Shown here: piece by piece, positions 5,331 through 30,168 of the stretch
How positions within the stretch are numbered: the stretch's first letter is position 1
Layout: the number at the start of each line of letters is the position of its first letter
Assembly (NCBI GenBank): GCA_030642005.1
Contig: DAOWOP010000002.1
Span: 1 to 40,966, forward strand
From: Planctomycetales bacterium
GTDB taxonomy: Bacteria; Planctomycetota; Phycisphaerae; SM23-33
Length of the DNA stretch: 40,966 bases
Reading direction: 5' to 3'
Position numbers and translations under genes: made by a program
The notes under the pieces: generated by a model
What the model was told of the DNA's origin: nothing
What the model saw: only the letters and a program-made list of their open reading frames with translations
Databases searched by the model: none

Positions 5331-5446
5331 AAAGCAGGGATACAGGGGATAAGAAATAATTAATTCTTTCAAAAAAACACCAGCGTTCCTTTTCTGCTGT
5401 TGATTAATCTATGTTTTATCCCCTGTATCCCATGCATCCCTGCTAA
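5331..5446. repeat. family-1 hairpin element (GCAGGGAT/GCAGGGGAT/ACAGGGGAT units), copy A
   Basis: Left arm GCAGGGATACAGGGGATAA at 5334-5352 (one unit missing). Right arm 5416-5446 is the reverse complement of TTAGCAGGGATGCATGGGATACAGGGGATAA. The loop is AT-rich. Confidence 0.85.
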
Positions 5447-6858
5447 TTTTTTTCTCCCAGGCTGCGTGCGATGCGTTGTTCGTCGTCTGGTGCGGCGAAG
5501 TCGGAGAACCTCGGCAGGGGCCGGCCTCGCTTGCCGTAGTAATACGTCAGACCTCTATAAATGGCAAAGTTGGCGAGATAGGAATTCTTCTTCAACGGCA
5601 GCGCCTTGAGCCGCTTGACCGCGCTGCGCGGAGTATAGAACTCGTGAAACGCAGCCATCTGGGCGTGGCGGAGTTGGTCGATTGTCATCTTCGCCGGCTG
5701 GAAGACCACCGTCGCACCGTTGTACTTGTCCCAGTCGGTCGTCAGCAACCGGCCTTCGCGGCGGAACTGGTCGAAGACGGCCGTGCCGGGATAAGGCGTC
5801 AGGATCGGATAGCAACTCATGCACAGGTCGGCCCGCTGGGCAAAGCGGACTGCCTCCATGCAGTCGCGCCAGTCGTCGCTGTCGAAACCGAAAATGAACG
5901 AACCCCAGATGCTGATGCTGTAAGACTGAATCTTCTTTATCCGCTCGATATACGTTTCGGCCCTGGCGTAACTCTTGCCGGACTCGGCGAGTGTTTCATT
6001 TTTCGGGCTTTCCAGGCCCAGGATCAGCCCAATGCACCCGCTGTCGCGCATCGTCGCAAGAAGGCGGTCGTTATTGGCGATGAGGATGTCGCACTGACTG
6101 GCCCAGCGGACCTTGAGTGGCTTTAGTTTCTCGAAAAGTTCCATCGCCCAGGCGTGGTTGCCGGCGACGTTGTCGTCGGAGAAGATAAACACCCTGCTGC
6201 CGAAGCGTTCATACGCCTCGGCTATCTCATCGACGATGTCGGCGATTTCCCGCTGTCGGAATTTTCTGCCGAAAATTGCGGGCGTAGTACAGAAGGTGCA
6301 GGCGTGTGGGCAGCCGCGGGTCGTCTGGATAGGGTTGAAGACGAGGTATTCCGCCGGGTCCAACAGGTCCTTTCGCGGCGTGGCGATGGGCGTTTCGGCC
6401 ACCTCGGTCCAGTCGTAGAGCGGTTTGGCCTGCCCGGCGTCCAGGTCGCGCAGCGCCCTCGGCAGCGTCGCTTCGGCGTCGCCCCGGCAGACGATTTGTG
6501 CGTGCTGGAGCGCCTCGTCGGGCAGAGCGGACGGATGAATCCCGCCAAGGATCACCGGCACGCCAAGGGCGCGGTACTGGTCGGCTATCTCGTACGCCCG
6601 GCGGGCCTGCGTGGTCATCGCACCGATGCCGACAGCGTCGACATCGGCGGTCGCCGTGTGCAGCGCGTCGGTGATGTTCTCATCGACGATTTCGACGTCC
6701 CACCCGTCGGGGACCACCGCCGCGCATATCGCCAGGTTCAGCGGCATGAACAGCGCCCGCCGGGAAAACGTCATCTTCCGGATAATCTCCGGCATCGTAA
6801 TTGTCGAAAGCGCGCTGTGAGGGTTGATCAGCCGAAGTCTTCTCGATTGCGGATTCAC
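5443..6858 (-). CDS. B12-binding domain radical SAM protein
   Basis: CxxxCxxC cluster motif (TRGCPHACTFCTTP) and an N-terminal cobalamin-binding-like region (GIGAMTTQARRAYEIADQYRALGVPVILGGIHPS). The start is uncertain. GTG 6858 gives MNPQSRRLRLINPH, a typical N-terminus for this family. ATG 6795 and ATG 6954 are alternatives; 6954 would translate a tandem repeat and overlap the upstream gene. Confidence 0.85.
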   Translation of the reverse strand: MNPQSRRLRLINPHSALSTITMPEIIRKMTFSRRALFMPLNLAICAAVVPDGWDVEIVDENITDALHTATADVDAVGIGAMTTQARRAYEIADQYRALGVPVILGGIHPSALPDEALQHAQIVCRGDAEATLPRALRDLDAGQAKPLYDWTEVAETPIATPRKDLLDPAEYLVFNPIQTTRGCPHACTFCTTPAIFGRKFRQREIADIVDEIAEAYERFGSRVFIFSDDNVAGNHAWAMELFEKLKPLKVRWASQCDILIANNDRLLATMRDSGCIGLILGLESPKNETLAESGKSYARAETYIERIKKIQSYSISIWGSFIFGFDSDDWRDCMEAVRFAQRADLCMSCYPILTPYPGTAVFDQFRREGRLLTTDWDKYNGATVVFQPAKMTIDQLRHAQMAAFHEFYTPRSAVKRLKALPLKKNSYLANFAIYRGLTYYYGKRGRPLPRFSDFAAPDDEQRIARSLGEKN

Positions 6859-6924
6859 CGGTCTTTCGGTATTCCGGTCTTTCGGTATTCCGGTATTCCG
6901 GTCTTTTTCCAAGTCCCAAGTCCC
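6858..6924. repeat. tandem oligomer repeat (CCGGTCTTTCGGTATT x2, CCGGTATT, CCGGTCTTT, CCAAGTCC x2), no inverted partner
   Basis: Read directly in the gap between the discoidin-lipoprotein stop (6924) and the radical SAM start. Confidence 0.8.
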
Positions 6925-7412
6925 TATTGTAGATAAACCTCTGCTATTACCCATCGGCTCCTGCCGGGCTTGGCGGCCTCAATGCGGACATAGCGTGCGA
7001 GCGTCGGGGCCGGCAGCGAGACAATCGTAAGGCGCCGCGTGCCGGGCGCGATGTATCTATTGTTGAAAATTTTACCATCCACGCTGGTGGATACATCGAC
7101 ACTCCGGCAATGGCCGCTCTTGGCGCCGCCGTGCTCGATAATAACGGTCTGAAAGAGGCAGACCTTCTTCAGGTCGATGATCAGTTCGGCCCCCTGGTAC
7201 TGATAGTTGCTACTAGCGGCTGTGGCCAGGTCTTCATCGGCGGCGGCGGCGGGATTGGTCAGATCGCCCCGAACGCTCCAGGTGTTCTTGGGCGTGATGT
7301 CCGCACCGAGATAGCCGCCGGTACTTGGGCTATAGACAGGCGTGATAACATCACACCCGACCACTACGCCGGCCAGAAAAATCAGAACGATACCTTTTCG
7401 CAGATAATTCAT
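6924..7412 (-). CDS. F5/8 type C (discoidin) domain lipoprotein
   Basis: Internal ATG 7412 gives MNYLRKGIVLIFLAGVVVGC (lipobox-like). The C-terminal part has the discoidin pattern (ELIIDLKKV...VSTSVDGKIF...LARYVRIEA...IAEVYL). Confidence 0.7.
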   Translation of the reverse strand: MNYLRKGIVLIFLAGVVVGCDVITPVYSPSTGGYLGADITPKNTWSVRGDLTNPAAAADEDLATAASSNYQYQGAELIIDLKKVCLFQTVIIEHGGAKSGHCRSVDVSTSVDGKIFNNRYIAPGTRRLTIVSLPAPTLARYVRIEAAKPGRSRWVIAEVYLQ

Positions 7413-7642
7413 AGCCCAGACATTATACACGCAAATCCGCGGGCGTGAAAGGGCCACTCACGACAGAACGAGCATGGTTTTACCGGCGTAGGGCCAGCCA
7501 CAAAGCCTTGCGGGACAAGGGGTAAGAATAAAAGTGTCAAAATCGCCAATTTGTCCGAAACTATTTGCCGTCCGGAACGTTTAAAATATAGAGGGTTGGT
7601 TCGTAGGATTGCAGGCGGTATCGGCCGATAAGGCGGTAAAAA

Positions 7643-7933
7643 ATGAGGCGGGTAAATGCTAAAAACGACGGGGCTCGAAGCCGGCTGACTGTCCGCAAAA
7701 GACGCACCGGGCGACCCCACTACGCCCGCCTGACGGATTCCGCCTGTAGCGATTATTTCCGCGTTCCGCCTTCAGCGGCCAGGCCCAAGCGGATGTTTGT
7801 CAACTGCCACTACTGCGGCTACGCCCCGGCGCACGGGCTGATCCCGAAGACCGGCCTGTGCCCGAAGTGCGGCTCAATGAGTTGGGACCGATTCGCCCTC
7901 GCTGAACCTCTCGTGCCCGAACATATGAAATAA
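7643..7933 (+). CDS. small zinc-ribbon protein (CxxC...CxxC) with a possible Arg-rich N-terminus
   Basis: CHYCGY...CPKCGS motif. Start ambiguous: ATG 7643 gives 96 aa with a very basic N-terminus; ATG 7793 gives 46 aa. Confidence 0.35.
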   Translation: MRRVNAKNDGARSRLTVRKRRTGRPHYARLTDSACSDYFRVPPSAARPKRMFVNCHYCGYAPAHGLIPKTGLCPKCGSMSWDRFALAEPLVPEHMK

Positions 7934-7945
7934 CCAGCCGCGCCC

Positions 7946-8097
7946 AAATCCGAAGCACGAAACTCGAAACAATATCGAATGACCAAAATTCAAATTCTCC
8001 AAACGCCCCCTACAGCAGGTTTCGGTGAGATTGTTTTGAAGATTTGAATTTCGGATTTGAAATTTGTTTCGGATTTCGATATTCGCATTTCGGATTT
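7946..8097. repeat. family-2 AT-rich long hairpin element (ATCCGAA/ATATCGAA-type units), copy 1
   Basis: Left arm about 7946-7998 and right arm about 8038-8097 are imperfect inverted copies. Both closely resemble the arms at 12947-13106. Confidence 0.8.
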
Positions 8098-8117
8098 GCT
8101 TCTAATATAGACGCACT

Positions 8118-9347
8118 ATGCAAGCCGTCATTATCGCTATCGGAGATGAACTCATCGGCGGGGCAAGCGTCGATACCAACAGCGCGTACCTTTCGGCCCA
8201 CCTGGCCGAGCGCGGGATCGTCGCGGTGCGTCACGTAACCGTCGGCGACGATGCCGGGCGGATTACCGAGGCCATCACCCGCGCCGCCGAAGAGGCTGAA
8301 CTGGTCGTCATCACCGGCGGGCTTGGCCCGACGCGAGACGACCTGACCCGCCAGGCACTTGCGGACGCTATGGGCGTCGAACTTCTCGAGGACGCCCGTT
8401 CAGCCGAACGCATCGCCGCATTCTTCGCCCGGATAGGGCGCACGATGAAACCCTCCAACCTCACTCAGGCGATGATTCCCGCCGGAGCCGAAGTGCTGGA
8501 CAACGACTGCGGCACCGCTCCAGGCATCGCCGCTCGCCTTGGCCAAGCCGACGTGTTCGCCCTGCCGGGACCGCCGAACGAAATGACCGAGATGTTCGAG
8601 CGGCAGGTCGCGCCCCGCCTGCCCGACGCCGGGGCGTCCGCACGAAGGATTCTACATGCCTTCGGTACCGGCGAATCGGACATCGGCGAAAAAATTGCCG
8701 ACCTGATGGCACGCGACGCCAATCCGAAAGTCGGCACAACAGCAAAGGGCGGGATCATCTCCATACGAATCGTCGCCGACGGCGAAACTACCGGCCAGGC
8801 CGAAAGACTCGCCGAAAAAACCGCCGACGAAATCCGCCGCCGGCTGGGCGAACTTATCTTCGGCGCCGGCGACCAGACGCTGCCGTCGGTTGTCGGCAAG
8901 GCCCTCAAAGCCGGCGGCCTGACGCTGGCAACGGCTGAATCGTGCACCGGCGGAATGATAGGCCGGATGATGACCGAAACGCCCGGCGCAAGCGAATATT
9001 TCCTCGGCGGCCTCGTCGCCTACGCCAATTCCGCGAAGACGGCGATGCTGAACGTCCCAGCCGAGACGATCGAAACCCACGGTGCCGTCAGCGAGCGGTC
9101 AGCCGATGCGATGGCCCGCGGCGCGAGAGAGAAATTCGGCTCGGATTTCGCCCTGGGCGTTACCGGAATCGCCGGGCCGACCGGCGGCTCGGACGAAAAA
9201 CCTGTCGGGCTGGTCTATATCGCCCTGACCGGCGCCGGCGGGACAAAGGTCCATCGTCACATCTTCGGCGGCGATCGTAACATCGTCCGCCGACGCGCCG
9301 CACTGGCCGCCATAAACCACCTGCGACTGGCGCTGACTCATAAGTAA
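8118..9347 (+). CDS. cinA: CinA family protein (MoCF-binding domain + nicotinamide-nucleotide amidohydrolase PncC domain)
   Basis: N-terminus MQAVIIAIGDELIGG...VITGGLGPTRDDLT (MoCF_BD) and C-terminus LATAESCTGGMIG...GVTGIAGPTGG (CinA/PncC). Confidence 0.9.
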   Translation: MQAVIIAIGDELIGGASVDTNSAYLSAHLAERGIVAVRHVTVGDDAGRITEAITRAAEEAELVVITGGLGPTRDDLTRQALADAMGVELLEDARSAERIAAFFARIGRTMKPSNLTQAMIPAGAEVLDNDCGTAPGIAARLGQADVFALPGPPNEMTEMFERQVAPRLPDAGASARRILHAFGTGESDIGEKIADLMARDANPKVGTTAKGGIISIRIVADGETTGQAERLAEKTADEIRRRLGELIFGAGDQTLPSVVGKALKAGGLTLATAESCTGGMIGRMMTETPGASEYFLGGLVAYANSAKTAMLNVPAETIETHGAVSERSADAMARGAREKFGSDFALGVTGIAGPTGGSDEKPVGLVYIALTGAGGTKVHRHIFGGDRNIVRRRAALAAINHLRLALTHK

Positions 9348-9360
9348 GAAGGGAAAAATG

Positions 9361-9401
9361 CCACAGCCCACGGAGAAGGAGAGGCATTCCGTGGGCTGTG
9401 G
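9361..9401 (-). terminator. intrinsic terminator between convergent genes
   Basis: Perfect 13-bp stem, CCACAGCCCACGG (9361-9373) with CCGTGGGCTGTGG (9389-9401). On the minus strand it is followed by CATTTTTCCC. Confidence 0.65.
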
Positions 9402-9430
9402 GTACATATACCGATTGCCGATTGCCAAAA

Positions 9431-10438: not shown

Positions 10439-10547
10439 TCCGATCTCTCTATAAATTATATCGGCAATCCTGTTTTCGTCAAGGCGCATATTGCGTATAA
10501 ATTTTCCCTTTATTGCGTCATCGCCTTTTTTTTGTGGTATAATAATA

Positions 10548-11738
10548 ATGATGAGCAAGACCGGAAGGGACAAAGGGTTATCAGGTCATTCAGCATCTGA
10601 TCGCAGTCGGCGAGTGGCGGTATTTCTGCATTGGGATTCTGCCGAGGCTCGGGCCATGCGTCTGGGGATCGCCCGGTACGCCGCCGCCCACGGGCTGTGG
10701 ACATTCTTTTCACGGGACGAGGAAGCCTTTGAGCCATTGCGGAAACTGGAAAAGTGGGACGGCGACGGGATCATAGCATCAATCCATAACGAGGACTTTG
10801 CCGGGAAGATTCGTGCTTCGGGCGCAACAGCGGTGAATGTTTCGGCTGCGCCGGGTTTCCCCATTGTTACAAAGGACGATACGGCGGCCGGTCGGCTGGC
10901 GGCTGATCACCTGATAAAACAGGGGCATCAACATTTCGGGTACGTTGGCATAAAGGGTATATACACCCGTCGGCAACGGGATGGATTTATCAGGACGATT
11001 CAACAGGCCGGGCTGGGCGAGGCTGTTTATGAACCTGCGCCGCTCGATCGGATGCCTGTAAGGTGGAAAACCGCTCAGAAGTTGCTGGTCCGCTGGCTGC
11101 GGTCGCTGCCTAAACCGATCGGCTTGACGGCCTGCGATAACTACCGCGGCCGGCAGGTCATTGAGGCCGCCCGAGCCTGCGGAGTCCTTATACCGGACGA
11201 GGTGGCGGTAATCGGCGTCAGCAACGATGAGATGATGTGCGAGTTCTGCAACCCGCCGCTTTCGAGTATTTCGCTCCAGGGCGAGCGGATCGGTTATGAG
11301 GCCGCGAGGCTGCTGGATCATTTAATGAACGGCGGGACGCCGCCGGAAAAGCCCATCCTCATCCCGCCCGGCGAGGTGGTGGTGAGGCGGTCGTCGGACA
11401 TGCTGGCTATCGCCGATGCCGACCTGGCCGCCGCGGTGCGATTTATCCGCGAGCACGGAAACAAGGCGATCGGCGTAGCCGACGTCCTGAACGAAGTGCC
11501 GATCTCCCGGCGCAGCCTGGAGCGGCGATTCGGCGCAATCGTCGGGCACAGCCCCTGGCGGGAAATCCGCCTCGCACAGATCGCCCACGTAAAAAAACTC
11601 CTTATCGAAACCGATATGTCCATGCCAAAGGTCGCCGCGGCATCGGCCTTTTACGATGCCAAGCGCCTCTCCACTATCTTCAAGGAAGAGACCGGCGTAA
11701 CGCCGACGGCCTACCGCCGACAGTTCCGAACCGTCTGA
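10548..11738 (+). CDS. XylR-like transcriptional regulator (periplasmic-binding-protein-like sugar-binding domain + AraC-type HTH)
   Basis: The N-terminal two thirds resemble a LacI/PBP-type ligand domain (RVAVFLHWDSAEARAMRLGIARYAA...). The C-terminus is an AraC HTH (VADVLNEVPISRRSLERRF...TGVTPTAYRRQF). ATG 10548 or 10551. Confidence 0.85.
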   Translation: MMSKTGRDKGLSGHSASDRSRRVAVFLHWDSAEARAMRLGIARYAAAHGLWTFFSRDEEAFEPLRKLEKWDGDGIIASIHNEDFAGKIRASGATAVNVSAAPGFPIVTKDDTAAGRLAADHLIKQGHQHFGYVGIKGIYTRRQRDGFIRTIQQAGLGEAVYEPAPLDRMPVRWKTAQKLLVRWLRSLPKPIGLTACDNYRGRQVIEAARACGVLIPDEVAVIGVSNDEMMCEFCNPPLSSISLQGERIGYEAARLLDHLMNGGTPPEKPILIPPGEVVVRRSSDMLAIADADLAAAVRFIREHGNKAIGVADVLNEVPISRRSLERRFGAIVGHSPWREIRLAQIAHVKKLLIETDMSMPKVAAASAFYDAKRLSTIFKEETGVTPTAYRRQFRTV

Positions 11739-11752
11739 CCGGCAAAAAAGAA

Positions 11753-11867
11753 TTAGCAGGGATGCAGGGGATACAGGGGATAGGAAATGAATTTAAAAGA
11801 GGAAAAAATATCTGTTGGAATTTTGAAAAATAAGTTTTATCCCGTGCATCCCTTGCATCCCTGCTAA
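11753..11867. repeat. family-1 hairpin element, copy B
   Basis: Left arm TTAGCAGGGATGCAGGGGATACAGGGGATA at 11753-11782. Right arm 11838-11867 is the reverse complement of TTAGCAGGGATGCAAGGGATGCACGGGATA. The loop is 55 nt and AT-rich. Confidence 0.9.
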
Positions 11868-11901
11868 TTCTTTCCCCCGCCGCGTTTTCAAAACTTTCTT
11901 C

Positions 11902-11929
11902 TTGACATGTGTTGCACGCGCTGTACACT
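11902..11929 (+). promoter_or_regulatory. promoter P1 (TTGACA - 16 nt - TACACT) upstream of the DtxR-FeoA gene
   Basis: TTGACA at 11902-11907 and TACACT at 11924-11929. AAAACTTTC at 11890-11898 and GAACTTTC at 11942-11949 flank it. Paralogous to P2 at 15562-15589. Confidence 0.55.
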
Positions 11930-11974
11930 GTTTGAGTAGATGAACTTTCGCGGGTTTTACCGGGATTACGCTTG

Positions 11975-12685
11975 ATGGCAAAGCAGGAGCGAAAACTTAC
12001 CCGTCGGCTTGAGGATTACCTCGAAGCCGTGCTCGTTCTCGTCCGCCGAAACGGCGTTGCGCGTGTCAGCGAGATTGCCGCGGCGACCAACGTCAGCAAA
12101 TCGTCGGTAACGGCCGCACTTAAACACCTTGCCGGCAACGGGCTGGTCAATCACGACCCGTATCAGTTCGTAACGCTCACGCCCCACGGGACGGAACTGG
12201 CACAAAAGGTGCTCGATAAGCACAATCTGCTGATGTCGTTCCTGACCGACGTCATGAACATCGACCCAACCGCCGCAGAAGAAAACGCCTGCCGGATGGA
12301 GCACGTCGTCGATGATATTGTGCTGGAGCGGATGGAGATGTTGGCGACGTTCATTCAGGAATGTCCGCTGGGCGGGAAAGATTGGATGGAAAAGTTTTCA
12401 AACTATTGCCGGCAACATCCATCGGAAACATCGGAGCAATCAACCTTGAACACGACAATGGACAAGATGAAACCTGGGCAAAAAGGCAAAATTGTAAGGG
12501 TTGGCGGTAGCATCGGAGCGGCGCGTCGCCGGCTTATGGACATGGGTGTTACTCCCGGCACGCCGTTCGAGGTCGAGCGCGTCGCGCCGCTGGGCGACCC
12601 GATCGAGATACGAATTCGAAAATACCACCTGACGCTGCGTAAGGCCGAGGCCGCCGGTATCACCGTGGAACCGATGGAAGAATGA
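11975..12685 (+). CDS. DtxR/MntR-family metal-dependent transcriptional regulator with a C-terminal FeoA (SH3-like) domain
   Basis: N-terminal winged helix (LEDYLEAVLVLVRRNGVARVSEIAAATNVSKSSVTAALKHL), a dimerisation/metal-binding domain, and a C-terminal FeoA-like segment (MKPGQKGKIVRV...GVTPGTPFEVERVAPLGDPIEIRI). ATG 11975; a TTG lies at 11972. Confidence 0.85.
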   Translation: MAKQERKLTRRLEDYLEAVLVLVRRNGVARVSEIAAATNVSKSSVTAALKHLAGNGLVNHDPYQFVTLTPHGTELAQKVLDKHNLLMSFLTDVMNIDPTAAEENACRMEHVVDDIVLERMEMLATFIQECPLGGKDWMEKFSNYCRQHPSETSEQSTLNTTMDKMKPGQKGKIVRVGGSIGAARRRLMDMGVTPGTPFEVERVAPLGDPIEIRIRKYHLTLRKAEAAGITVEPMEE

Positions 12686-12936
12686 ACGACGCAAACGTCA
12701 ACCCGCTCCCGCCGATGCCGCTCACGATGGCGCTGGTGGGTCAGAGAGTTACCTTCGCGGGCGTGCGCAACGCCGGAAGAGGCCTGACGCACCGCCTGGC
12801 CGAGATGGGCCTGACGCCGGGTGAGAACCTGGAGATTCTAAATCGCGGATCCGGGCCGTTCATCGTCTCGATAAAGGGAAGCAGATTCGTCCTGGGCAGA
12901 GGAATGGTGCATCGAATACTCGTCAGACCAGGATAG
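12682..12936 (+). CDS. feoA: ferrous iron transport protein A
   Basis: 84 aa with the FeoA pattern (LTHRLAEMGLTPGENLEILNRGSGPFIVSIKGSRFVLGRGMVHRILV). The ATGA overlap with the upstream gene suggests translational coupling. Confidence 0.8.
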   Translation: MNDANVNPLPPMPLTMALVGQRVTFAGVRNAGRGLTHRLAEMGLTPGENLEILNRGSGPFIVSIKGSRFVLGRGMVHRILVRPG

Positions 12937-12946
12937 TAGTCAGTAG

Positions 12947-13106
12947 AAAAATCCGAATATCGAATGTCGAAATCCGAAACAATATCGAAATACAAATGAC
13001 TAAAATCCGAAACACAAAAAAACAGACATTCGTTTCTGTAATCTGTGTTTTGAACATTAGAAAATTCGGATTTTGAATTTGTTTCGGATTTCGATATTCG
13101 GATTTT
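12947..13106. repeat. family-2 AT-rich long hairpin element, copy 2 (inside the feoA-feoB gap)
   Basis: Left arm 12947-13025 and right arm 13043-13106 are imperfect inverted copies of about 65-80 nt. The unit structure is AATCCGAA / TATCGAA / TGTCGAA / ATCCGAAA. Confidence 0.85.
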
Positions 13107-13136
13107 ACTATCGACTCCTGTTGCAGGATATAAACC

Positions 13137-15323
13137 ATGACAGACAAGCATTTTACAATAGCCCTGGCCGGTAATCCCAACTCCGGCAAGACGACGGTCT
13201 TCAACGCCATAACCGGCGCACGCCAGCACGTGGGAAACTACCCCGGCGTAACGGTGGAGAAGAAGGCCGGCGCCGCCACCCACGGCGACGTCCGTCTGGA
13301 GGTGGTCGATCTGCCCGGCACGTACAGCCTGACGGCCTACAGCATCGAAGAAGTCGTCGCCCGAAACTTCCTGCTGAATGACAAACCCGACGTCGTCGTC
13401 GATATAGTGGATTCATCCAACCTCGAGCGCAACCTGTACCTGGCGACGCAGTTGATGGAACTGGGCGTGCCTCTGGTGTTGGCGTTCAATATGTCCGACG
13501 TAGCCGAAGGCAGGGGGTATAACATCGACGATGATAAACTGGCCGAACTGCTGGGCGTGCCGATAGTCAAGACGGTCGGACACAAGGGCAAGGGAATCAC
13601 CGAACTTCTCGATGCAGCCCTGGCTGTCGCCCGGGACGGCCAGGCCGTCGCATCACAGCGACACCCCAACTATGGCAGCGAAATCGAACCGCACCTAAAA
13701 CAACTGACAGGCCTGGTCGCCGAAAAATGCGACAAGCATCGCCCGCGATGGTTCGCCATAAAACTGCTGGAAAATGACGCCGAAACAATCAAGCGTCTCC
13801 GGCAAGCGTGCCCGCAGCACATCGAGGAATTGCTGGCCGAGGCCGAACGCCTGCGGCGCCACATCGAGAGCATCTGCGGCGATGCAGCCGAGATAATCCT
13901 CGCCGACCGGCGATACGGGTTCATCTCCGGCGCATGCACCGAAGCCGTTACCCAATCCGTCGAAGTCCGCCACGAACGGTCCGACAAAATCGACTCGGTA
14001 ATGACCAACCGCTATCTGGGCCTGCCGATATTCGCGCTGCTGATGTTCCTGGTCTTTCAGTTGACCTTTTTCATGGGCAATCCGCTGGTGGACCTGCTCG
14101 ATAGCGGAAAGGGTCTCCTGGCTGAAGCCGTTGGCGGACTGTGGGGCGAGTCGGGCGCCGACAGCGTTCTGCGAAGCCTGCTGGTCGATGGGATAATCGA
14201 AGGCGTCGGGGCCGTTATGGTCTTCACGCCACTGATAATGCTGCTTTTCCTGGCGATTGCGTTCCTTGAAGACTCCGGCTACATGGCCCGCGCAGCCTTC
14301 GTTATCGACCGCCTGATGCACAAGATAGGTCTGCACGGAAAGAGTTTCATCCCGATGCTCATCGGCTTCGGCTGCACCGTTCCGGGTATCATGGCCACGC
14401 GAACGCTGGAAACCCGCCGCGACCGCCTGACTACCATCCTCGTGCTGCCGCTGATGAGTTGCGGGGCGAGATTGCCGATTTATGTGCTCATTCTCGGTGC
14501 GTTCTTTCCCGTAAACACGGTCTTGCGGCTCTTTGGAATACTCCCCGTAACCAATCATGCGCTATGGCTGTTTCTTATCTACATTATAGGCATTGCCCTG
14601 GCGATTATCTGTGCGAAGATTTTCCGGGCAACTCTCCTCAAGGGCGAAGCCACGCCGTTCGTAATGGAACTACCCCCCTACCGCATGCCGACGCTCAAGG
14701 GCCTGGCGATCCATATGTGGGAGCGGACCTGGCTTTACATCAAAAAGGCCGGGACGATCATCCTTGCTATCGTCGTGGTTCTCTGGGCGCTTGCGTATTG
14801 GCCGAAACTGGGTGAAGAAAAACTGGTCGTCTTCGAACAGCGGCGCGCCGCCGTACAGGCCGACGCCCATCCCGACAAAGAGCAAACCGCCGAACTGCTC
14901 GCCGAAATCGACGCAGCCGAGCATGAAGCCAAACTGGAACATTCAGCAATAGGTCGGGCAGGAAAGACCATCGCACCGGTGTTCAAGCCCTGCGGATTCG
15001 ACTGGAAAATTTCCACCGCCACGATTGGAGCGTTCGCAGCCAAGGAAGTATTCGTCGGACAGATGGGCGTGCTCTATTCGGTCGGCGACGACGTTGACGA
15101 AGAATCCGTGGATCTCCGCGAAAAACTCGCCGCCAAGTACACGCCGCTGATGGGATTCTGCATCATGCTGTTCAGCCTGATAAGTATGCCGTGCATGGTA
15201 ACCGTCGCTGTTACGGTGCGCGAAGCCGGGTGGCGGTGGGCGCTGCTACAGGTAACCTACCTGACCGCCCTGGCGTGGGTGCTGACGACGATTGTCTATC
15301 AGGTCGGATCACGACTGATATAA
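13137..15323 (+). CDS. feoB: ferrous iron transporter B
   Basis: N-terminal G-domain (IALAGNPNSGKTTVFNAITG, DLPGTYSL, NMSD) followed by a polytopic membrane domain; 728 aa. AGGA lies 8 nt upstream of the ATG. Confidence 0.95.
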   Translation: MTDKHFTIALAGNPNSGKTTVFNAITGARQHVGNYPGVTVEKKAGAATHGDVRLEVVDLPGTYSLTAYSIEEVVARNFLLNDKPDVVVDIVDSSNLERNLYLATQLMELGVPLVLAFNMSDVAEGRGYNIDDDKLAELLGVPIVKTVGHKGKGITELLDAALAVARDGQAVASQRHPNYGSEIEPHLKQLTGLVAEKCDKHRPRWFAIKLLENDAETIKRLRQACPQHIEELLAEAERLRRHIESICGDAAEIILADRRYGFISGACTEAVTQSVEVRHERSDKIDSVMTNRYLGLPIFALLMFLVFQLTFFMGNPLVDLLDSGKGLLAEAVGGLWGESGADSVLRSLLVDGIIEGVGAVMVFTPLIMLLFLAIAFLEDSGYMARAAFVIDRLMHKIGLHGKSFIPMLIGFGCTVPGIMATRTLETRRDRLTTILVLPLMSCGARLPIYVLILGAFFPVNTVLRLFGILPVTNHALWLFLIYIIGIALAIICAKIFRATLLKGEATPFVMELPPYRMPTLKGLAIHMWERTWLYIKKAGTIILAIVVVLWALAYWPKLGEEKLVVFEQRRAAVQADAHPDKEQTAELLAEIDAAEHEAKLEHSAIGRAGKTIAPVFKPCGFDWKISTATIGAFAAKEVFVGQMGVLYSVGDDVDEESVDLREKLAAKYTPLMGFCIMLFSLISMPCMVTVAVTVREAGWRWALLQVTYLTALAWVLTTIVYQVGSRLI

Positions 15324-16076: not shown

Positions 16077-16122
16077 CACACAACCAGACTTACTCGCAAC
16101 CCAGCCAGCAATCAGCCAGCAA

Positions 16123-16170
16123 GGGAGCGTGTGGAACGCTTTTTCGCGTCCATCCGTTCTCTTTCGCGTT
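16123..16170 (+). terminator. degenerate copy of a repeated terminator module
   Basis: GGGAGCG...GGAACGC-TTTTTC-GCGTCC...CGTTCTC, followed by TTTCGCGTTT. The outer stem needs two G-U pairs. It is about 90% identical to 18711-18757. Confidence 0.45.
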
Positions 16171-18659: not shown

Positions 18660-18717
18660 CTGAGAAAACAGGAAATCCGAAGGTCGCCCAGCCACCCAGC
18701 GAGCTAAAGGCCAGCAA

Positions 18718-18766
18718 GGGAGCGAGTGGAACGCTTTTTTCGCGTCCATCCGCTCCCTTTTTTATT
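18718..18766 (+). terminator. rho-independent terminator (repeated module, intact copy)
   Basis: Outer stem GGGAGCG (18718-18724) with CGCTCCC (18751-18757), inner stem GGAACGC with GCGTCC, followed by TTTTTTATT. Confidence 0.75.
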
Positions 18767-22189: not shown

Positions 22190-22240
22190 GCGAAACGGCA
22201 AGCCGTGGGGTTTGCCGTTTCGCGGTATTTTCGGTTTTTT
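22190..22240 (+). terminator. rho-independent terminator
   Basis: Perfect 12-bp stem, GCGAAACGGCAA (22190-22201) with TTGCCGTTTCGC (22212-22223), followed by GGTATTTTCGGTTTTTT. Confidence 0.8.
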
Positions 22241-25332: not shown

Positions 25333-26205
25333 GTGTACAGATTGGAAACCTGCACAAGCACAAGCGTCCTGGCGGCGGGTTTGGGTATATCGTGGTTCTA
25401 TGACATAAACCCGGTAGTCCAGGCATTGATTGCGACGTTCGGTACGTGGCTTGTTACCGCGCTGGGTGCCGCGGTGGTGCTTTTGACGAAGAAGGTTTCA
25501 CAGAAGTATCTGGACGCTTCACTGGGCATGGCCGCCGGTGTGATGATCGCCGCGAGTTTCTGGAGCCTCCTTGCCCCCTCGATCGACCTGGCTGAAAAAT
25601 CGTACGGCGAGGCGCTGAAATGGATGCCGCCGCTGGTGGGGTTTCTACTTGGTGCGGTGGTGCTGCGAATAATCGACAGGATACTGCCCCACCTGCATCC
25701 CGACCTGGCAATAGCCGAGGGACCCAAAACCTCCCTGCATCGCAGCACGCTGCTGGTGCTGGCGATCACGATACACAACTTTCCCGAAGGCCTGGCTATC
25801 GGCGTGGCGTTCGGGGCAGCCGCTCATTTGTCCGGCGCTGAACAGGCAGCCCAGATAGGCTCGGCCATCGCCTTGGCCATCGGCATCGGTCTTCAGAATT
25901 TTCCCGAAGGCACGGCCGTGGCGCTGCCTTTGCGCCGTGAAGGAATGAGCCGGGCCAAGGCGCTGTGGTATGGGCAACTCTCGGCAGTGGTCGAGCCGAT
26001 TGGCGCTATCCTTGGGGCCGGTGCCGTGCTGATGATCAGTTCGATCCTGCCTTACGCACTGGCCTTCGCCGCTGGAGCGATGATCTTCGTCGTAGTCGAA
26101 GAACTCATCCCCGAGGCACAGCGAAAAGGTAACGTGGACCTGGCTACGATGGGCGCGATTGTCGGTTTTGCGATTATGATGACGTTGGATGTAGCCTTGG
26201 GATAA
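25333..26205 (+). CDS. ZIP family metal cation transporter
   Basis: [14 protein letters not shown] and [15 protein letters not shown] signatures with about 8 TM helices. Start uncertain: GTG 25333, or in-frame TTG 25381 giving [17 protein letters not shown]. Confidence 0.85.
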
Positions 26206-26215
26206 TCGCAGACTA

Positions 26216-27088
26216 CTACTCTTCCTGTTTCAGCCTGCGTGCGAGAAGTTCGTCGCGGCGTTTCTTAGCGGCGGTGAGGTAGCGCTCGATACCGGCTGCG
26301 TCGCCGAGGTCGATCAGGTCGCGGATGCGCATAAGTTGCTCGTCGGCTGCGTCAATGGCCGCCAGCAGCGGCTTGCGGTTGGTCAGGATAATGTCCCGCC
26401 ACATGGCCGGATCGCCCGAGGCGATCCGCGTGGTGTCGAGGAAGCCGCGACCGGCCAGGGGCAGGTCTGCGTTTTTCTGGCCTGTGACGATCATGGCCGC
26501 CAGGACGTGCGGCAGGTGCGAGATGCGCGCGACGGCGCGGTCATGGGCAGTCGGAGTCATGCGAACGGTTCGGCTGCCGAGCATCTCCCAGAACCGCAAC
26601 ACCTTGCGCAGCGCCGCAGGGCGGGTGTGCTTTGTCGGCGTAACGATACAAGTCGCGCCGGCGAACAGGTCGGCCCTGGCGAACTGCACGCCGCGGCGCT
26701 CGGACCCGGCCATCGGGTGGCTGCCGATGAAAGGCCCGCCTTGACCAAGGACAGCCTCGGCCAGGCGGACGACGACAGCCTTGGTCGAGCCGACGTCTGT
26801 AACGACCGCACGGGCCGAAATCGAATCCCGCATCGCCAGCAGGTGATCTTCGCAAGCGCCCAGCGGCGTAGCCAACACAACCAGGTCCGCACCGGTAACA
26901 CCCTCTTCCGTCGAAAGCGTAGCGGTGTCAATCGCACCGGCAGCCAGAGCGCGGGCGAGGGACGATCTCCGTCGCCCGACACCCGCCACAGCGATACTTT
27001 CATCAGCGGCCTTGAGGGCAAGACCAATCGACCCGCCCAGAAGACCAACCCCGACGACCGTTACCTTTTCAAGAACCGGCTTCTTCAT
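26216..27088 (-). CDS. tyrA: prephenate dehydrogenase
   Basis: Internal ATG 27088 (MKKPVLEKVTVVGVGLLGGSIGLALK Rossmann motif), GSHPMAGSE, and HDRAVARISHLPHVLA. Confidence 0.85.
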   Translation of the reverse strand: MKKPVLEKVTVVGVGLLGGSIGLALKAADESIAVAGVGRRRSSLARALAAGAIDTATLSTEEGVTGADLVVLATPLGACEDHLLAMRDSISARAVVTDVGSTKAVVVRLAEAVLGQGGPFIGSHPMAGSERRGVQFARADLFAGATCIVTPTKHTRPAALRKVLRFWEMLGSRTVRMTPTAHDRAVARISHLPHVLAAMIVTGQKNADLPLAGRGFLDTTRIASGDPAMWRDIILTNRKPLLAAIDAADEQLMRIRDLIDLGDAAGIERYLTAAKKRRDELLARRLKQEE

Positions 27089-27108
27089 AAGTCCACCAAA
27101 GAAGATTA

Positions 27109-27191
27109 ACCACAAAGGACACAAAGAGCACAAAGTAAAAAACGAAATTTTTAATTCTTTTGTTCTTTGTGCTCTTTGTGTCCTTTGTGGT
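27109..27191. repeat. family-3 perfect hairpin element (CACAAAGGA CACAAAGAG CACAAAG units)
   Basis: The 27-nt arm ACCACAAAGGACACAAAGAGCACAAAG (27109-27135) has its exact reverse complement at 27165-27191. The loop is 29 nt and AT-rich. The element lies 20 nt upstream of the tyrA start. Confidence 0.9.
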
Positions 27192-27343
27192 CAATTTTGA
27201 CGGGTCAATTTTTTCTTGCCCGTTTTGCCAAATGAGCCTATCCTGTTGTCATTGTAAGAAAACGTTGAAAGGGCGCCGGTAAGCGTCCTTGTTTGGTGTT
27301 AATCTTTGTCTGAAAACTATTTCAAACCGGCAATTAGTAAAAA

Positions 27344-27420
27344 GCGGTCAGCGGTCAGCAATCAGCATTGCAGGTCCTTTGTTTATTGGGTTTTTGGCTG
27401 AATGCTGAATGCTGAATGCT
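27344..27420. repeat. family-4 heptamer-repeat imperfect hairpin (GCGGTCA GCGGTCA GCAATCA GCATT ... TGAATGC x3)
   Basis: Heptamer tandems at 27344-27369 and 27399-27419 in inverted orientation. Pairing is imperfect: about 5 Watson-Crick pairs plus 1 G-U per unit. Confidence 0.75.
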
Positions 27421-27513
27421 TTGAGGCGATGTCTGAACTTTTCAGACAGAGCTTAGGTAAGATATGTTCATCCAGGCCTGATGTTTATACGAGGCCGCTA
27501 TTGAGATTGAGCC

Positions 27514-28539
27514 ATGCCGCCCGGTCCGAACGGTTCGCAAAACGGCGATAGCGAGTATCTGCTCGACTTCGAGAAGCCCCTGGCTGCCAACCGGCGTCAT
27601 ATCGCCGAGTTGGAGGCAGACCAGGCCGCCGCCGGTCGAGACCACAGCAGCGAGATTCGCCGCCTCCGCGCCCGGTACCTGACGCAACTGAAGACGACCT
27701 ACAGCAACCTGTCGGCCTGGCAGACCGTCCAGGTCGCCCGCCATCCCCACAGGCCCCTGGCAGGCGATTACCTCGACCGCATCGTAAAGGAATTCGTCGA
27801 ACTGCACGGCGACCGCACATTCGGCGACGATCACGCCATCCGCTGCGGACTGGGGCGGATTGCCGCTGAAAAAGTCGTCATCATCGCCCAACACAAGGGC
27901 CGGGACACCAACGAAAAAATCAAATGCAACTTCGGCTGCGCGCACCCGGAAGGCTACCGCAAAGCCCTTCGCGTGATGAAACTGGCCGAGAAATTCGCCC
28001 TGCCGATTGTTACCCTGATTGATACGCCGGGCGCATATCCGGGCGTCGATAGCGAGGAGCGCGGCGTAGCCGAAGCGATCGCGGTCAACCTTCGCGAAAT
28101 GAGCCGCCTGCGAACACCGATAGCCTGCCTGGTAATCGGCGAGGGCGGATCGGGCGGGGCGCTGGGCATCGGCGTCGGCGACCGAATGGCAATGCTCCAA
28201 CACGCCTATTACAGCGTCATCAGCCCGGAAGGCTGCGCCGCTATCCTGTGGAAGACCGGCGAAAAGGCCGCCGACGCCGCCGAAGCAATGAAACTCACAT
28301 CCAGGCACCTCATGGACATGGACATCATCGACGAGGTTGTCGGCGAGCCGCTCGGCGGGGCGCACCGCGACCCAGCCGAAGCCGCCGCTAACGTTGAACG
28401 ATACTTCGTCCGAAGCCTCCGCGACCTCCGCAGATTCAACATCGACGACCTGCTCCAACGCCGATACGACCGCTGGCGAAAAATGGGAAAAGTCATCAAA
28501 CTCCAACCAGCAACGCCCCAACCAGCGGTAAAAGATTAG
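27514..28539 (+). CDS. accA: acetyl-CoA carboxylase carboxyltransferase subunit alpha
   Basis: LDFEKPL...ELE..., IAQHKGRDTNEKIKCNFG, PIVTLIDTPGAYPG and GEGGSGGALGIGVGD are classic AccA motifs. Confidence 0.92.
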   Translation: MPPGPNGSQNGDSEYLLDFEKPLAANRRHIAELEADQAAAGRDHSSEIRRLRARYLTQLKTTYSNLSAWQTVQVARHPHRPLAGDYLDRIVKEFVELHGDRTFGDDHAIRCGLGRIAAEKVVIIAQHKGRDTNEKIKCNFGCAHPEGYRKALRVMKLAEKFALPIVTLIDTPGAYPGVDSEERGVAEAIAVNLREMSRLRTPIACLVIGEGGSGGALGIGVGDRMAMLQHAYYSVISPEGCAAILWKTGEKAADAAEAMKLTSRHLMDMDIIDEVVGEPLGGAHRDPAEAAANVERYFVRSLRDLRRFNIDDLLQRRYDRWRKMGKVIKLQPATPQPAVKD

Positions 28540-28565
28540 CAAGGATGCAGGGGATACAGGGGATT
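28536..28565. repeat. family-1 element, copy C left arm (overlaps the accA stop codon)
   Basis: TTAGCAAGGATGCAGGGGATACAGGGGATT. Its TAG at 28537-28539 is the accA stop codon. Confidence 0.85.
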
Positions 28566-28794
28566 CTCATAAAAAAAGCGAAGATCAGCGCAGACAGACA
28601 CAGATTACAAGCCGCCGTCTTGCTTTTTCATGTCTTGCGCCTCATCGGTAAATTGCCATGAAGAGGCCGGAGGTATATCCGGAAAACTTTCAAAGGTGAA
28701 TAGCGTCCGCCTTGTGTCCGTCTCCCCGTGGGGACCAACGTCCCAGTGGACTGACAGATTCCTAACTCCGACTTTTTCAAACACGACACGGTAA

Positions 28795-29253
28795 TTATTT
28801 ATATTTCCCTGGAGGAACCTGACCCTGTATCGACACAGGGAAATGCGTCCTTGGCCGTAGTGTTGGCGAAAAACTTTGGCCCAGCGCCCAAGTCCTTACG
28901 TTTGCGCATTCAATTTCGGGGCTATTGTACGCTTGTTCGAAGCGTCCCTCCGCTATGTCGTCCAAGAATCTCTGAAGTTGGCGATCCTCTTCAAACAGGA
29001 GTGGCGACAGCACAGTTGCAGGACATCCGGTCGTAGTAGCCGACAGACAAACCAGCCAGAGAAGCAAACCACCCCACGCGGCCCCGCGTCCGACCATCCG
29101 ACCTCCCCGCGTTTGCCACAGACCAAGAACGACGAAAACAATACCAAGCATCCCCAGCGGGAGAAAAAACAGCAGCCCAAGCGGTACCGACATGATAACC
29201 GCCCAACTGTATCGCTTCCTGTCCTGACCGGTTATTTCCTTAGTATCAGACAT
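28795..29253 (-). CDS. hypothetical membrane protein, possibly the 5' part of a frameshifted gene
   Basis: 152-aa ORF with two TM helices at the N-terminus. A second minus-strand frame stays open for about 97 codons, from just inside its 3' end down to a TAA at 28605. The local sequence is visibly less GC-rich than the flanks. Confidence 0.45.
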   Translation of the reverse strand: MSDTKEITGQDRKRYSWAVIMSVPLGLLFFLPLGMLGIVFVVLGLWQTRGGRMVGRGAAWGGLLLWLVCLSATTTGCPATVLSPLLFEEDRQLQRFLDDIAEGRFEQAYNSPEIECANVRTWALGQSFSPTLRPRTHFPVSIQGQVPPGKYK

Positions 29254-29285
29254 CCACTTCTGCCGCGTTCACTTCAATTTAAAAA

Positions 29286-29315
29286 AATCCCCTGCATCCC
29301 ATGTATCCCTGCTAA
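29286..29315. repeat. family-1 element, copy C right arm (overlaps the trpA stop codon)
   Basis: AATCCCCTGCATCCCATGTATCCCTGCTAA is the reverse complement of TTAGCAGGGATACATGGGATGCAGGGGATT. The CTA at 29312-29314 is the trpA TAG stop on the minus strand. Confidence 0.85.
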
Positions 29316-30130
29316 AGAATCGGTATCAGCAGTTCGCTGATGAAATCTCCGACTTTTTTTACCAGTTCGTTACGCGGGGCGTCTTTTGCGTCGGTGATGC
29401 GGTGGATGATGGCGGAGCCGACGATAGCGCCGTCGGCGACCTCGCAGACGTGTCCGACGGTTTCGGCGTTGGAGACGCCGAAGCCGATGCAGACGGGCGT
29501 ATCGGTGTGCGTGCGGAGTTCGGCGACGGCCCGGATGGACTCCTCCGGCAGGCGGGCACGCTCGCCCGTGATGCCGGCGATGGAGACGAAATAGATGAAC
29601 CCGCGCGAGTGGCGGGCGATTTCGAGCCGACGGGCCGGCGGCGTCGTCGGGGCGATCAGCATCACGTTGGCCAGGCCCGCCGCCGCAGCCAGCGGTTCCA
29701 ATTCAGCGGCTTCCTCCAGCGGCAGGTCGGGAATGATAATCCCATCGAAGCCGGCGCCGGCAGCGGCGGCCAGATATGACTCCACGCCGTGCTTGAAAAC
29801 GATGGAATAACTGACCATCGCCACAAGGGCCAGTTTTCCGTCGCCCTGACGGTATGACCGGACCATTTCGAAGATTTTTTCGCTGCTGACACCGGCGGAA
29901 AGGGCCTCGGTATATGAGGCCTGGATCGTCGGACCATCGGCAATCGGGTCGGAAAACGGAATCCCCAATTCACAGACCCGCACCCCGCGCGCCTCGAAAT
30001 TTCCCAGCAGCGCCGCGGTCGTCTCCAGGTCCGGATAACCAGCCGTCAGAAAAGGCATAAGCGCCTTCCTGCTCGCGGCACGAAGTTCCGAAAACGTCTT
30101 AACCAAACGATTGTAACGTAAATTACTCAT
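29312..30130 (-). CDS. trpA: tryptophan synthase alpha chain
   Basis: LMPFLTAGYPD, ELGIPFSDPIADGPTIQ, and YFVSIAGITGER...GFGVS. Confidence 0.92.
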   Translation of the reverse strand: MSNLRYNRLVKTFSELRAASRKALMPFLTAGYPDLETTAALLGNFEARGVRVCELGIPFSDPIADGPTIQASYTEALSAGVSSEKIFEMVRSYRQGDGKLALVAMVSYSIVFKHGVESYLAAAAGAGFDGIIIPDLPLEEAAELEPLAAAAGLANVMLIAPTTPPARRLEIARHSRGFIYFVSIAGITGERARLPEESIRAVAELRTHTDTPVCIGFGVSNAETVGHVCEVADGAIVGSAIIHRITDAKDAPRNELVKKVGDFISELLIPIL

Positions 30131-30141
30131 CTGTTTCTTTA

Positions 30142-30168
30142 TAATCTGTGAAATCCGTGTAATCCGTG
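30142..30168. repeat. 3 x 9-nt tandem repeat in the trpB-trpA gap (TAATCTGTG AAATCCGTG TAATCCGTG)
   Basis: Read directly; no inverted partner nearby. Confidence 0.75.

Follow-up and report, generated by a model that had tools for sequence, protein, structure and literature searches.

Tandem-unit hairpins in the window

The DNA analyzed here (the window, taken at its whole length of 40,966 nt) is a metagenome scaffold of a Planctomycetales bacterium of the class Phycisphaerae (assembly GCA_030642005.1, contig DAOWOP010000002.1). Between its genes lie short elements made of a few tandem copies of a 7-10-nt unit, usually faced by an inverted copy of the same array. We studied these tandem-unit hairpins in the window and in related genomes, together with two families of small genes, GxxExxY and a four-helix-bundle family, that arms of the same types enclose at other loci. 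An initial annotation of the window had sorted the sites into four hairpin families (F1-F4) and some unpaired tandems, and all of these sites were present at the coordinates given. The F1, F2 and F3 arms were among the seven longest inverted-repeat pairs of the window, the F2-F4 hairpins folded, and the paired families, as single strands, folded far better than shuffled sequences (z -2.8 to -12.9). The two tandems described as unpaired were real arrays by Tandem Repeats Finder and gave no fold. That annotation had missed two smaller arrays (9411-9426 and 6909-6924) as well as the inverted repeat that surrounds F4. Genes with Pfam support flank all of the sites (Table 1). The elements had been called strictly intergenic, which is nearly so; the ends of F1 overlap three stop codons (5443-5445, 28537-28539 and 29312-29314). 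There was no Rfam 15 family match at gathering level in the window (0 matches), and the sub-threshold matches were to generic models of long hairpins (plant miRNA precursors), with scores below half of the cut-off, so that a known RNA family was rejected as an explanation.

Table 1. Tandem-unit elements of the window, their arms and neighbours, and the predicted folds (z relative to shuffled sequences)
Feature	Position	Strand	Units and arms	Genes and context	Fold
F1 copy 1a	5324-5453		Arms ~5331-5358 and 5417-5446, RCANGGGAT units; 5324-5351/5426-5453 by inverted-repeat finder	Between B12-radical-SAM gene (5443-6954, -) and open reading frame (ORF) 4887-5309 (-); radical-SAM stop TAG (5443-5445) inside the arm's CTAA	RNA, -41.6 kcal/mol, z -6.5
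Unpaired tandem arrays	6858-6924		CCGGTCTTTCGGTATT x2.8, then CCAAGTC x2.3; 6858-6902 of period 8/16, adjoining 7-nt array at 6909-6924	Between F5/8-type-C gene and true start of radical-SAM gene	None (z -1.1)
F2 copy a	7945-8098		7-8-nt units (TTCGGAT/TTCGATA type) around a conserved core	Upstream of cinA (8118-9347, +)	z -2.8
Short heptamer array	9411-9426		CCGATTG x2.3	Beside canonical cinA terminator hairpin (~9358-9405)	
F1 copy 1b	11747-11873		Arms 11747-11782/11838-11873, 36 nt, 92% complementary	Between AraC-type regulator gene (10491-11738, +) and DtxR/FeoA gene (11972-12685, +)	-62.8 kcal/mol, z -10.2
F2 copy b	12935-13119			Between feoA (12682-12936, +) and feoB (13137-15323, +), inside the operon	-51.5 kcal/mol, z -8.3
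F3	27102-27198		TTAAC + CACAAAGGA CACAAAGAG CACAAAG, mirrored; arms 27102-27142/27158-27198, 41 nt, 90% complementary	Divergent region, prephenate dehydrogenase gene (-) / accA (+)	-52.6 kcal/mol, z -12.9; unbroken predicted stem that includes the 27-bp arms noted earlier
Composite palindromic insertion	27302-27457		Outer inverted repeat ATCTTTGTCTGAAAAC / TTTCAGACAGAGC at 27302-27317 / 27440-27452	Contains F4	
F4	27343-27366 and 27397-27420		GCGGTCA units (27343-27366; AGCGGTC x2.4 at 27343-27359 by Tandem Repeats Finder) and GCTGAAT units (27397-27420; x3.4)	Inner part of the composite	Imperfect pairing, z -4.4
F1 long form, left arm	28536-28573	+	With the right arm: 38 nt, 82%, 704 nt apart	accA stop TAG (28537-28539) within the arm's TTAG	
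ORF	28795-29253	-	152 aa, no family match	Cargo between the long-form F1 arms	
F1 long form, right arm	29278-29315	-		trpA stop (29312-29314) within the arm's CTAA	
Solo arm, CACGGAT family	30142-30168	-	TAGTC CACGGATTA CACGGATTT CACAGATTA (minus strand)	Between trpB and trpA; trpB stop TAG at the arm's outer end	None (z -0.2)

The F1 copy 1b stands between the end of its upstream gene and a good sigma-70-like promoter match (TTGACA, 16 nt, TACACT; 11902-11929, +), which adjoins the element and lies upstream of the DtxR/FeoA gene.

Abundance and unit classes

A search for the F1 arm motif TTAGCAGGGATRCANGGGAT with at most three mismatches gave six matches in the window (5331+, 5427-, 11753+, 11848-, 28536+ and 29296-), which form three convergent pairs, or about one F1 per 14 kb. 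The expected number was 0.02, and none of 100 shuffled sequences reached six. In a collection of species-representative genomes the motif occurred in more than 106 stretches; among the matches listed, all were from metagenome-assembled genomes (MAGs) of Planctomycetota/Phycisphaerae, from many assemblies. F2 and F3 also occurred at other loci of the collection (L103, L074, L098 and L051; F3 in L103, L098 and L051). Phage-borne spread of F1 was rejected, since 2.9 million viral contigs gave 0 matches.

The F1-bearing loci and the window (~770 kb, the Phycisphaerae set) were compared with 906 kb of unrelated FeoB-locus contigs, recovered by a metagenome FeoB search with nothing closer than 60% identity (the control set). 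Hairpins with arms of at least 18 nt, at least 80% complementary, and a loop of no more than 200 nt numbered 197 in the Phycisphaerae set and 61 in the control, and their arms were significantly periodic in 54 of the 197 vs 1 of the 61. Of these 54, 34 were among the 133 Phycisphaerae hairpins that are not F1, the period being 7 in 24 of them, 9 in 5 and 8 in 3. Period-7 arrays as such occurred at 130/Mb, as against 25/Mb in the control; an inverted partner within 300 nt was present for 46 of 100 heptamer arrays but for only 3 of 23 in the control. The motif RATT was found in 47% of the Phycisphaerae heptamer units (11% expected from shuffled units) and in 4% of those of the control. Thus, the tandem-unit hairpin architecture is beyond chance and lineage-specific.

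The shared RATT means that heptamer families described as unrelated have a common core, and by their sequences the elements fall into two classes. Class A, with 9-10-nt units, an outer terminus TT[A/C][A/G]C and arms of about 24-39 nt, takes in F1, F3 and the 30142-30168 solo arm: F1 begins TTAGC+AGGGAT, F3 TTAAC+CACAAAGGA and the solo arm TAGTC+CACGGATTA, and like arms occur at GxxExxY genes in L188-L200, L207 and L209. Class B, of 7-nt units, often with the RATT core, comprises F2 (TTCGGAT/TTCGATA), F4 (GCTGAAT) and heptamer arrays such as that at 9411-9426. The earlier description of the families as having unrelated sequences was therefore right in part, except for the terminus shared within the 9-10-nt class and the core shared within the 7-nt class.

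MAG contigs ended in or next to an F1 arm in L003, L009, L011, L019, L034, L073 and L086, and many GxxExxY homologues were on contigs shorter than 2 kb. F1-type repeats appear to break short-read assemblies.

Sequence constraint on the F1 arms

We found 79 F1 arm pairs, most of them in elements of 70-125 nt. The arms were nearly invariant, with RCANGGGAT as the unit, and the spacers were mostly unrelated: 59 had no relative by blastn, and there were five small clusters only. Some spacers carry nested hairpins of other families, e.g. F3 within F1 in L098. Outside the arms, the left flank is A-rich and the right flank T-rich. At the free positions of the unit (1 and 4), the two arms of a pair agreed as independent draws would (0.42 vs 0.42 and 0.32 vs 0.37), and no covariation between paired arms was found. 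A pair of 29-nt arms had about 4.6 mismatches, half of them transversions, and the wobble mismatches were without a clear sense-strand bias (41 vs 31). Since there is neither arm covariation nor wobble bias, the constraint acts on the sequence of each arm and not on its pairing, and an RNA structure under selection was rejected for the same two reasons.

On four CAYUYD contigs (one assembly), F1 copies with a common spacer lie at different loci. At L008 2697-4907, the F1 arms are 2.2 kb apart, with a sulfatase-like gene and another complete F1 between them; in L101 the orthologous site carries an F1 of 122 nt. In L008, either the spacer of an F1 received a large insertion or cargo was captured.

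GxxExxY genes within 9-10-nt arms

Long forms of F1 enclose small genes, and at the nusB site this gene encodes GxxExxY (TIGR04256/PF13366). In metagenome and MAG loci, the GxxExxY gene was enclosed or directly adjoined by inverted arms of tandem units, 24-39 nt long and 84-96% complementary. At the nusB site, the arms were F1 in L188, L191 and L200 and consisted of GATGAACGCA units in L197. Units of CACGGATAAA formed the arms between Metallophos and trpF in L193 and between an aminoacyl-tRNA synthetase and an aminotransferase gene in L195, CACAGATGAA units those at 1993-2422 of L198, between brxC and pglX of a bacteriophage exclusion (BREX) operon, and the arms of L194, a Desulfuromonadaceae MAG, were F1-like (ACAGGGAT GAAGGGGAT GCAGGGGAT). 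A tblastn search of plasmid and chromid records gave eight further GxxExxY genes, with clear bracketing arms of 25-30 nt and period 8-9 in Bacteroides finegoldii, Bernardetia and Sphingomonas (fabD/fabG), and with like arrays nearby in Gemmatirosa, Prevotella and Treponema. The same unit of gene plus arms is thus found in unrelated contexts (nusB/ftsY, Metallophos/trpF, synthetase/aminotransferase, brxC/pglX, fabD/fabG, radA/FAD protein and ade/guanylyltransferase) and in taxa that include Planctomycetota, Desulfuromonadaceae, Bacteroidota and Sphingomonas. No direct repeats flanked the GxxExxY cassettes.

In a strict scan for bracketing arms (at least 20 nt, at least 80%, 300-650 nt apart), 10 of the 16 newly fetched GxxExxY loci had such arms. 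L020 and L077 had bracketing arms as well, and those of L191 were 994 nt apart. The 906-kb control contained three bracketing inverted repeats only, none with a tandem unit by eye. Unit periods were taken as the best period per locus given by Tandem Repeats Finder on 300-nt flanks. Among 18 GxxExxY loci the best period was 9 in 10, 10 in 4, 7 in 1 and 11 in 1, with none in 2; period-9/10 arrays therefore flank 14 of the 18, in several phyla.

The GxxExxY proteins of L193 and L195, whose genes lie at different loci and both have CACGGATAAA arms, share 80% identity, and neither exceeds 60% with any other protein; for those of L206 and L207, the mutual identity is 55%, and that to all others is 43% or lower. 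These values suggest that the protein clade tracks the arm family. Arms of the CACGGAT family, to which the solo arm of the window belongs, bracket GxxExxY in L193 and L195, and the F3 unit is similar to the arms that flank GxxExxY in L207, from Bacteroides.

The GxxExxY model (pLDDT, predicted local distance difference test, 92) has the predicted fold of a minimal PD-(D/E)XK nuclease. The nearest solved folds were Cas4 SSO0001 (best), lambda exonuclease and the AddAB nuclease domain, i.e. only generic PD-(D/E)XK nucleases, and a sequence search against PDB gave no relative. PF13366 is listed as a family of unknown function with much horizontal transfer (PMC3424549). A literature search of limited reach on GxxExxY (PDDEXK_3) found no functional study.

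Four-helix-bundle genes within 7-nt arms

In L056, which comes from the same assembly as L011, a relative of the window, GATTTTT/CGATTTT heptamer arms surround a four-helix-bundle gene of TIGR02436. We sampled eight further TIGR02436/PF05635 genes, from Cyanobacteriota, Chloroflexota, Spirochaetota and Bacteroidota. Inverted period-7 arrays lay on both sides of the gene in nine of nine loci, Phycisphaerae included, and 7 was the best period in each of the nine; the Nostoc, Planktothrix and Gloeocapsa loci were among those with heptamers on both sides. The family PF05635 bears the name '23S rRNA intervening sequence protein' and is similar to the Avd protein of diversity-generating retroelements (PMC10053308).

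The initial annotation had raised a protein-binding array as one possible function. This option was favoured by the conservation of the arms without arm-to-arm covariation and by the fact that the arm type tracks the enclosed protein family.

Several four-helix-bundle cassettes are located inside DISARM (defence island system associated with restriction-modification), restriction or CRISPR (clustered regularly interspaced short palindromic repeat) loci. Cassettes of both gene families were seen in defence loci (L198, L210, L211, L212, L217 and L215), the placements being brxC/pglX (BREX), drmD/MmeI (DISARM), DUF1156/HEPN protein, helicase/N6-methylase and next to cas1. They represent either tolerated insertions or a functional link to defence.

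A search for genes of REP-associated tyrosine transposases (RAYT), which mobilise repetitive extragenic palindromic (REP) sequences, had been proposed as a check. At L022 4514-5428, a RAYT gene is nested in an F1 arm pair, accompanied by its own REP, GTGGCACAGCCGCCCTCGGCTGTGG, in three tandem copies and an inverted one, and this GC-rich REP recurs in L068, L098, L104 and L107. Conventional REP/RAYT systems thus coexist with the tandem-unit families. There was no RAYT in the window and one other weak match only in the 770 kb. The check was negative for the families studied here: the sole RAYT is flanked by its own GTGGCACAGCCGCCCTCGGCTGTGG REPs and the F1 arms lie outside those, so that RAYT-mobilised REPs were rejected as the source of the elements.

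Gain, loss and persistence between relatives

Four loci contained orthologues of parts of the window, with nucleotide identities of about 80-87%, and elements were present or absent between these relatives. F1 copy 1a and F2 copy a are common to the window and L011, the F1 arm at the copy 1a site being at the end of the L011 contig. F1 elements in L073, L095, L092 and L102 align with copy 1b (81-86% over ~100-135 nt). The central 101 nt of F2 copy a are 97% identical in L011, as against 80-87% for the flanking alignments. In this orthologue (L011 ~260-450), an extra GC-rich mini-hairpin segment of about 22 nt (CGCCGAAGGCG-CCCCAAAGGGC) is present symmetrically in both arms, while in L103 it is in the left arm only, which suggests that one arm was copied onto the other.

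F1 is present in L095, and at another site in L050 and L091, where the matching window site has none; in the latter case the site is between divergent glycosyltransferase and permease genes. Conversely, the window unit of two F1 arms and the 152-aa ORF (28536-29315) is absent from L050, in which only 1 nt separates the stop codons of accA and trpA. In the window, the two genes have altered last residues and use the TAG of the element as their stop. The 156-nt composite around F4 is also absent from L050, with TTA at both junctions (27299-27301 and ~27453), and the F3 slot is filled there by an AATTGCC-heptamer palindrome. The alignment of the window with L011 breaks at 6838-6909 of the window, where between the shared flanks GATTGCGGATTCAC and CCAAGTCCC the window has the CCGGTCTT array and L011 a GGCATTY-heptamer hairpin. 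The solo arm between trpB and trpA has three units in the window and two in L050. The nusB-ftsY junction, on the other hand, holds F1 in at least eight species-representative loci, with near-identical arms despite flanks that are only 67-81% identical. The suggestion of a REP-like element or a miniature inverted-repeat transposable element (MITE) was supported by the multi-copy families, the presence and absence between relatives, the dispersed copies of whole elements and the REPIN-like population structure discussed below.

Interpretation and alternative explanations

The class A copies of the window are without a gene or enclose the unrelated 152-aa ORF, and the class B copies are without a gene. 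Since none has a cognate gene, we file them as ORF-less relatives and not as cassettes. In our judgement, the window elements are probably gene-less (non-autonomous, REPIN/MITE-like) relatives of two classes of hairpin-bracketed cassette. Each arm would be a short array, usually of about three recognition units of a size that a protein could read, mirrored across a variable spacer. The small enclosed protein may bind arrays of the units that belong to its family, whether in folded single-stranded DNA or in RNA, and may thereby propagate or maintain the master copy along with those that lack the gene, as RAYT does for REPINs; we infer that the proteins recognise or mobilise the arms. The copies of the window would then be passengers that reshape gene ends, by supplying TAG stops and by placing very stable hairpins in transcripts, and these hairpins may secondarily terminate or stabilise mRNA. 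A host role of some copies in termination, processing or mRNA stability is compatible with this explanation and is not a general one.

A bolder proposal, which we make only tentatively, is that GxxExxY and the Avd-like proteins are each the dedicated partner of their own repeat class, which would amount to two new repeat-plus-protein systems in many phyla, parallel to RAYT-REPIN. On a folded strand, the protein would recognise the units of 9-10 or 7 nt, and it would either promote the spread of copies without a gene or keep it in check.

Several observations weigh against our main explanation, in which the window elements are relatives of gene-bearing cassettes maintained by the enclosed protein. 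The window has no GxxExxY, four-helix-bundle (tblastn) or transposase gene, and the link of F2, F3 and F4 to the two genes is a resemblance in arm type, with no cassette of exactly that family. No clear bracketing arms were found at the GxxExxY loci of Fusobacteria and Persicobacter, and the sampling of GxxExxY began from the F1-linked protein, homologues then being located on contigs. Gene-less F1 is present at the nusB-ftsY junction in L073 (CAYUYD, as L011), L097 and L102, and genomes that bear F1 may lack GxxExxY, though MAGs are incomplete. The F1 arms also enclose RAYT, an HNH-like ORF and unknown ORFs, so the small genes, too, could be passengers accommodated in the loops of hairpins. 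There was no consistent target-site duplication, with one possible TTA, and we know of no catalytic activity of the four-helix-bundle protein. Lastly, the persistence of F1 at nusB-ftsY, and the F2 copy a core that is better conserved than the flanking coding DNA (window vs L011), fit a host function too.

It is also possible that the hairpins are RNA structures selected by the host, namely bidirectional terminators, 3'-end stabilisers or RNase III sites, and that the link to the small genes is secondary. The very stable folds (z -4 to -13), the A-rich left and T-rich right flanks, which are like those of a bidirectional terminator, the many copies that abut gene 3' ends (in about 14 cases with the stop codon inside an F1 arm), the retention of F1 at nusB-ftsY, the position of F2 copy b inside the feoA-feoB operon and the 97% core of F2 copy a all point that way; moreover, rRNA intervening sequences with a protein of the four-helix-bundle family are excised at their stem by RNase III. 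We nevertheless consider it unlikely. By crude gene calls, the context of F1 was divergent in 18 cases (~28%), co-directional in 32 and convergent in 14, and F3, F4 and the F1 of L050 and L091 are between divergent genes; the elements are therefore not obligate terminators. A terminator consensus scan called none of them and did call the canonical hairpin at 22190-22223. These findings, with the lack of a sense-strand G-U bias, led us to reject the terminator proposed earlier as the general explanation; F1 has T-rich outer flanks, but its spacers are 20-60 nt or longer. Nor are there compensatory changes between the arms, mismatches are frequent in arm pairs and solo arms persist, and structure by itself does not account for one sequence at hundreds of loci and across phyla. 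The canonical terminator-type hairpins of the window, at 22190-22223 and ~9358-9405, have a short loop and, in one case, a T run; the genome thus uses ordinary terminators beside the tandem-unit hairpins.

Two further explanations dispense with the small genes. The arrays might arise in place, by slippage and by template switching that symmetrises quasi-palindromes, in a lineage that tolerates long palindromes and without a dedicated protein. Identical arms at unrelated loci, in many assemblies and other phyla, and near-identical arms within diverged flanks make this improbable as the origin, as do the termini and cores common to families and a unit length that tracks the protein family (period 9-10 in 14 of 18 loci vs period 7 in 9 of 9), even though the unit number at the trpB-trpA site differs between the window and L050, the extra segment of F2 copy a is symmetric in L011, 54 of 100 heptamer arrays are without an inverted partner and the intergenic region 6838-6930 is a patchwork of short arrays. 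Slippage probably adjusts the unit number; it cannot be the origin. That the arms serve some chromosomal protein of the host (a nucleoid protein, an uptake-signal-like system or a regulator) as binding arrays unrelated to the small genes seems very improbable to us, since dozens of unit families coexist in one genome, families replace each other at one slot, copies are rapidly gained and lost, and there is a specific link to two small gene families across phyla. Such arrays would fit the conservation of arm sequence without covariation and the density of F1 in the window; uptake sequences are paired in terminators, of which the inverted pairing of the arms is reminiscent, and contiguous 7-8-bp repeats are bound by ribbon-helix-helix proteins such as omega and MetJ. 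We also rejected CsrA-type GGA motif arrays (F1 resembles CARGGAUG), DnaA boxes, to which TTATCCCCTG is similar, G-quadruplexes, Rho rut-like YC periodicity, HutP-like UAG-N4 repeats and ribbon-helix-helix heptad operators, because each fits one family at most or needs unpaired arms.

Relation to known repeat systems

By analogy, the population structure of F1 is that of REPINs (REP sequences paired as hairpins), in which the arms are conserved, no two spacers are alike and A/T runs lie outside: the arms are inverted and conserved, the spacer differs in length and sequence in nearly every copy, and the flanks carry the A/T runs (PMC3337134). There are also hundreds of intergenic copies, several families per genome, persistence at orthologous sites, and a small gene, probably present once, that lies among repeats of the family to which it belongs. 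Each REP is a short imperfect palindrome, however, whereas the arm here is a direct tandem array, e.g. GCAGGGAT GCAGGGGAT ACAGGGGAT, without self-complementarity, and the genes encode a 125-aa PD-(D/E)XK protein and a four-helix-bundle protein, not Y1/HUH transposases.

The Correia/NEMIS MITEs of Neisseria are elements of 70-200 nt with terminal inverted repeats that are scattered by genes, variably present and co-transcribed as hairpins. The elements described here resemble them in size, inverted ends, presence or absence, altered gene ends and the lack of a transposase in the short copies. MITEs share internal sequence and a defined target duplication, whereas here the spacers are unrelated, no consistent duplication is found and the arms are tandem sub-repeats. 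When examined as MITEs of a DDE transposase, the elements had inverted ends, and TTA was present at both junctions in one filled-vs-empty comparison, the other junctions being unalignable; no transposase was found between the arms, the cargo seen being GxxExxY, RAYT, the HNH-like ORF and unknown ORFs.

The ORFs of PF05635 in rRNA intervening sequences are likewise within a long stem-loop of flanking inverted repeats. The cassettes found here, with the same four-helix-bundle family between heptamer arms, differ in that they lie between protein-coding genes, including those of defence operons, and not in rRNA (family: PMC10053308). A literature search, limited in reach, found no mention of tandem-heptamer arms or gene-less copies of PF05635 elements.

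Heterocystous cyanobacteria contain abundant non-coding arrays of tandem heptanucleotides, the short tandemly repeated repetitive (STRR) sequences, whose function is unknown and which the class B arrays resemble. STRRs have been described as tandem arrays and not as inverted pairs around a gene, and to our knowledge they have not been reported from Planctomycetota. Their heptamers have been used for fingerprinting (PMC5088731).

As far as we could check, the association of the two genes with the arms has not been described; a literature search of limited reach gave no report that links either protein family to flanking tandem-unit repeats, which is weak as evidence. Few parts of bacterial genomes are as poorly understood as their short palindromic repeats, and we know of no family of them other than REPINs that has a well-supported protein partner. 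If the two proteins are indeed dedicated partners of their repeats, this would give a function to two large families of 'unknown' proteins, would explain the cyanobacterial STRR heptamers and the ORFs of rRNA intervening sequences, and would establish a new type of small mobile element, with insertion sites between genes and within defence operons. The roles of both proteins, the nature of the cyanobacterial heptamer repeats, the movement of intervening-sequence-like insertions and the reason why cassettes sit in BREX, DISARM and restriction operons can now be tested. In practical terms, the elements end metagenome contigs, create spurious tripeptide-repeat ORFs and rewrite the last codons of real genes.

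Other repeats in the window

A separate two-copy element, at 16116-16165 and 18711-18760, reads CCAGCAAGGGAGCG[T/A]GTGGAACGCTTTTT(T)CGCGTCCATCCG and contains a hairpin. Its copies precede, respectively, a gene of the PEP-CTERM/CBM96 type (16322) and a prepilin-type N_methyl gene (18779), and the element may be a shared leader or regulatory RNA.

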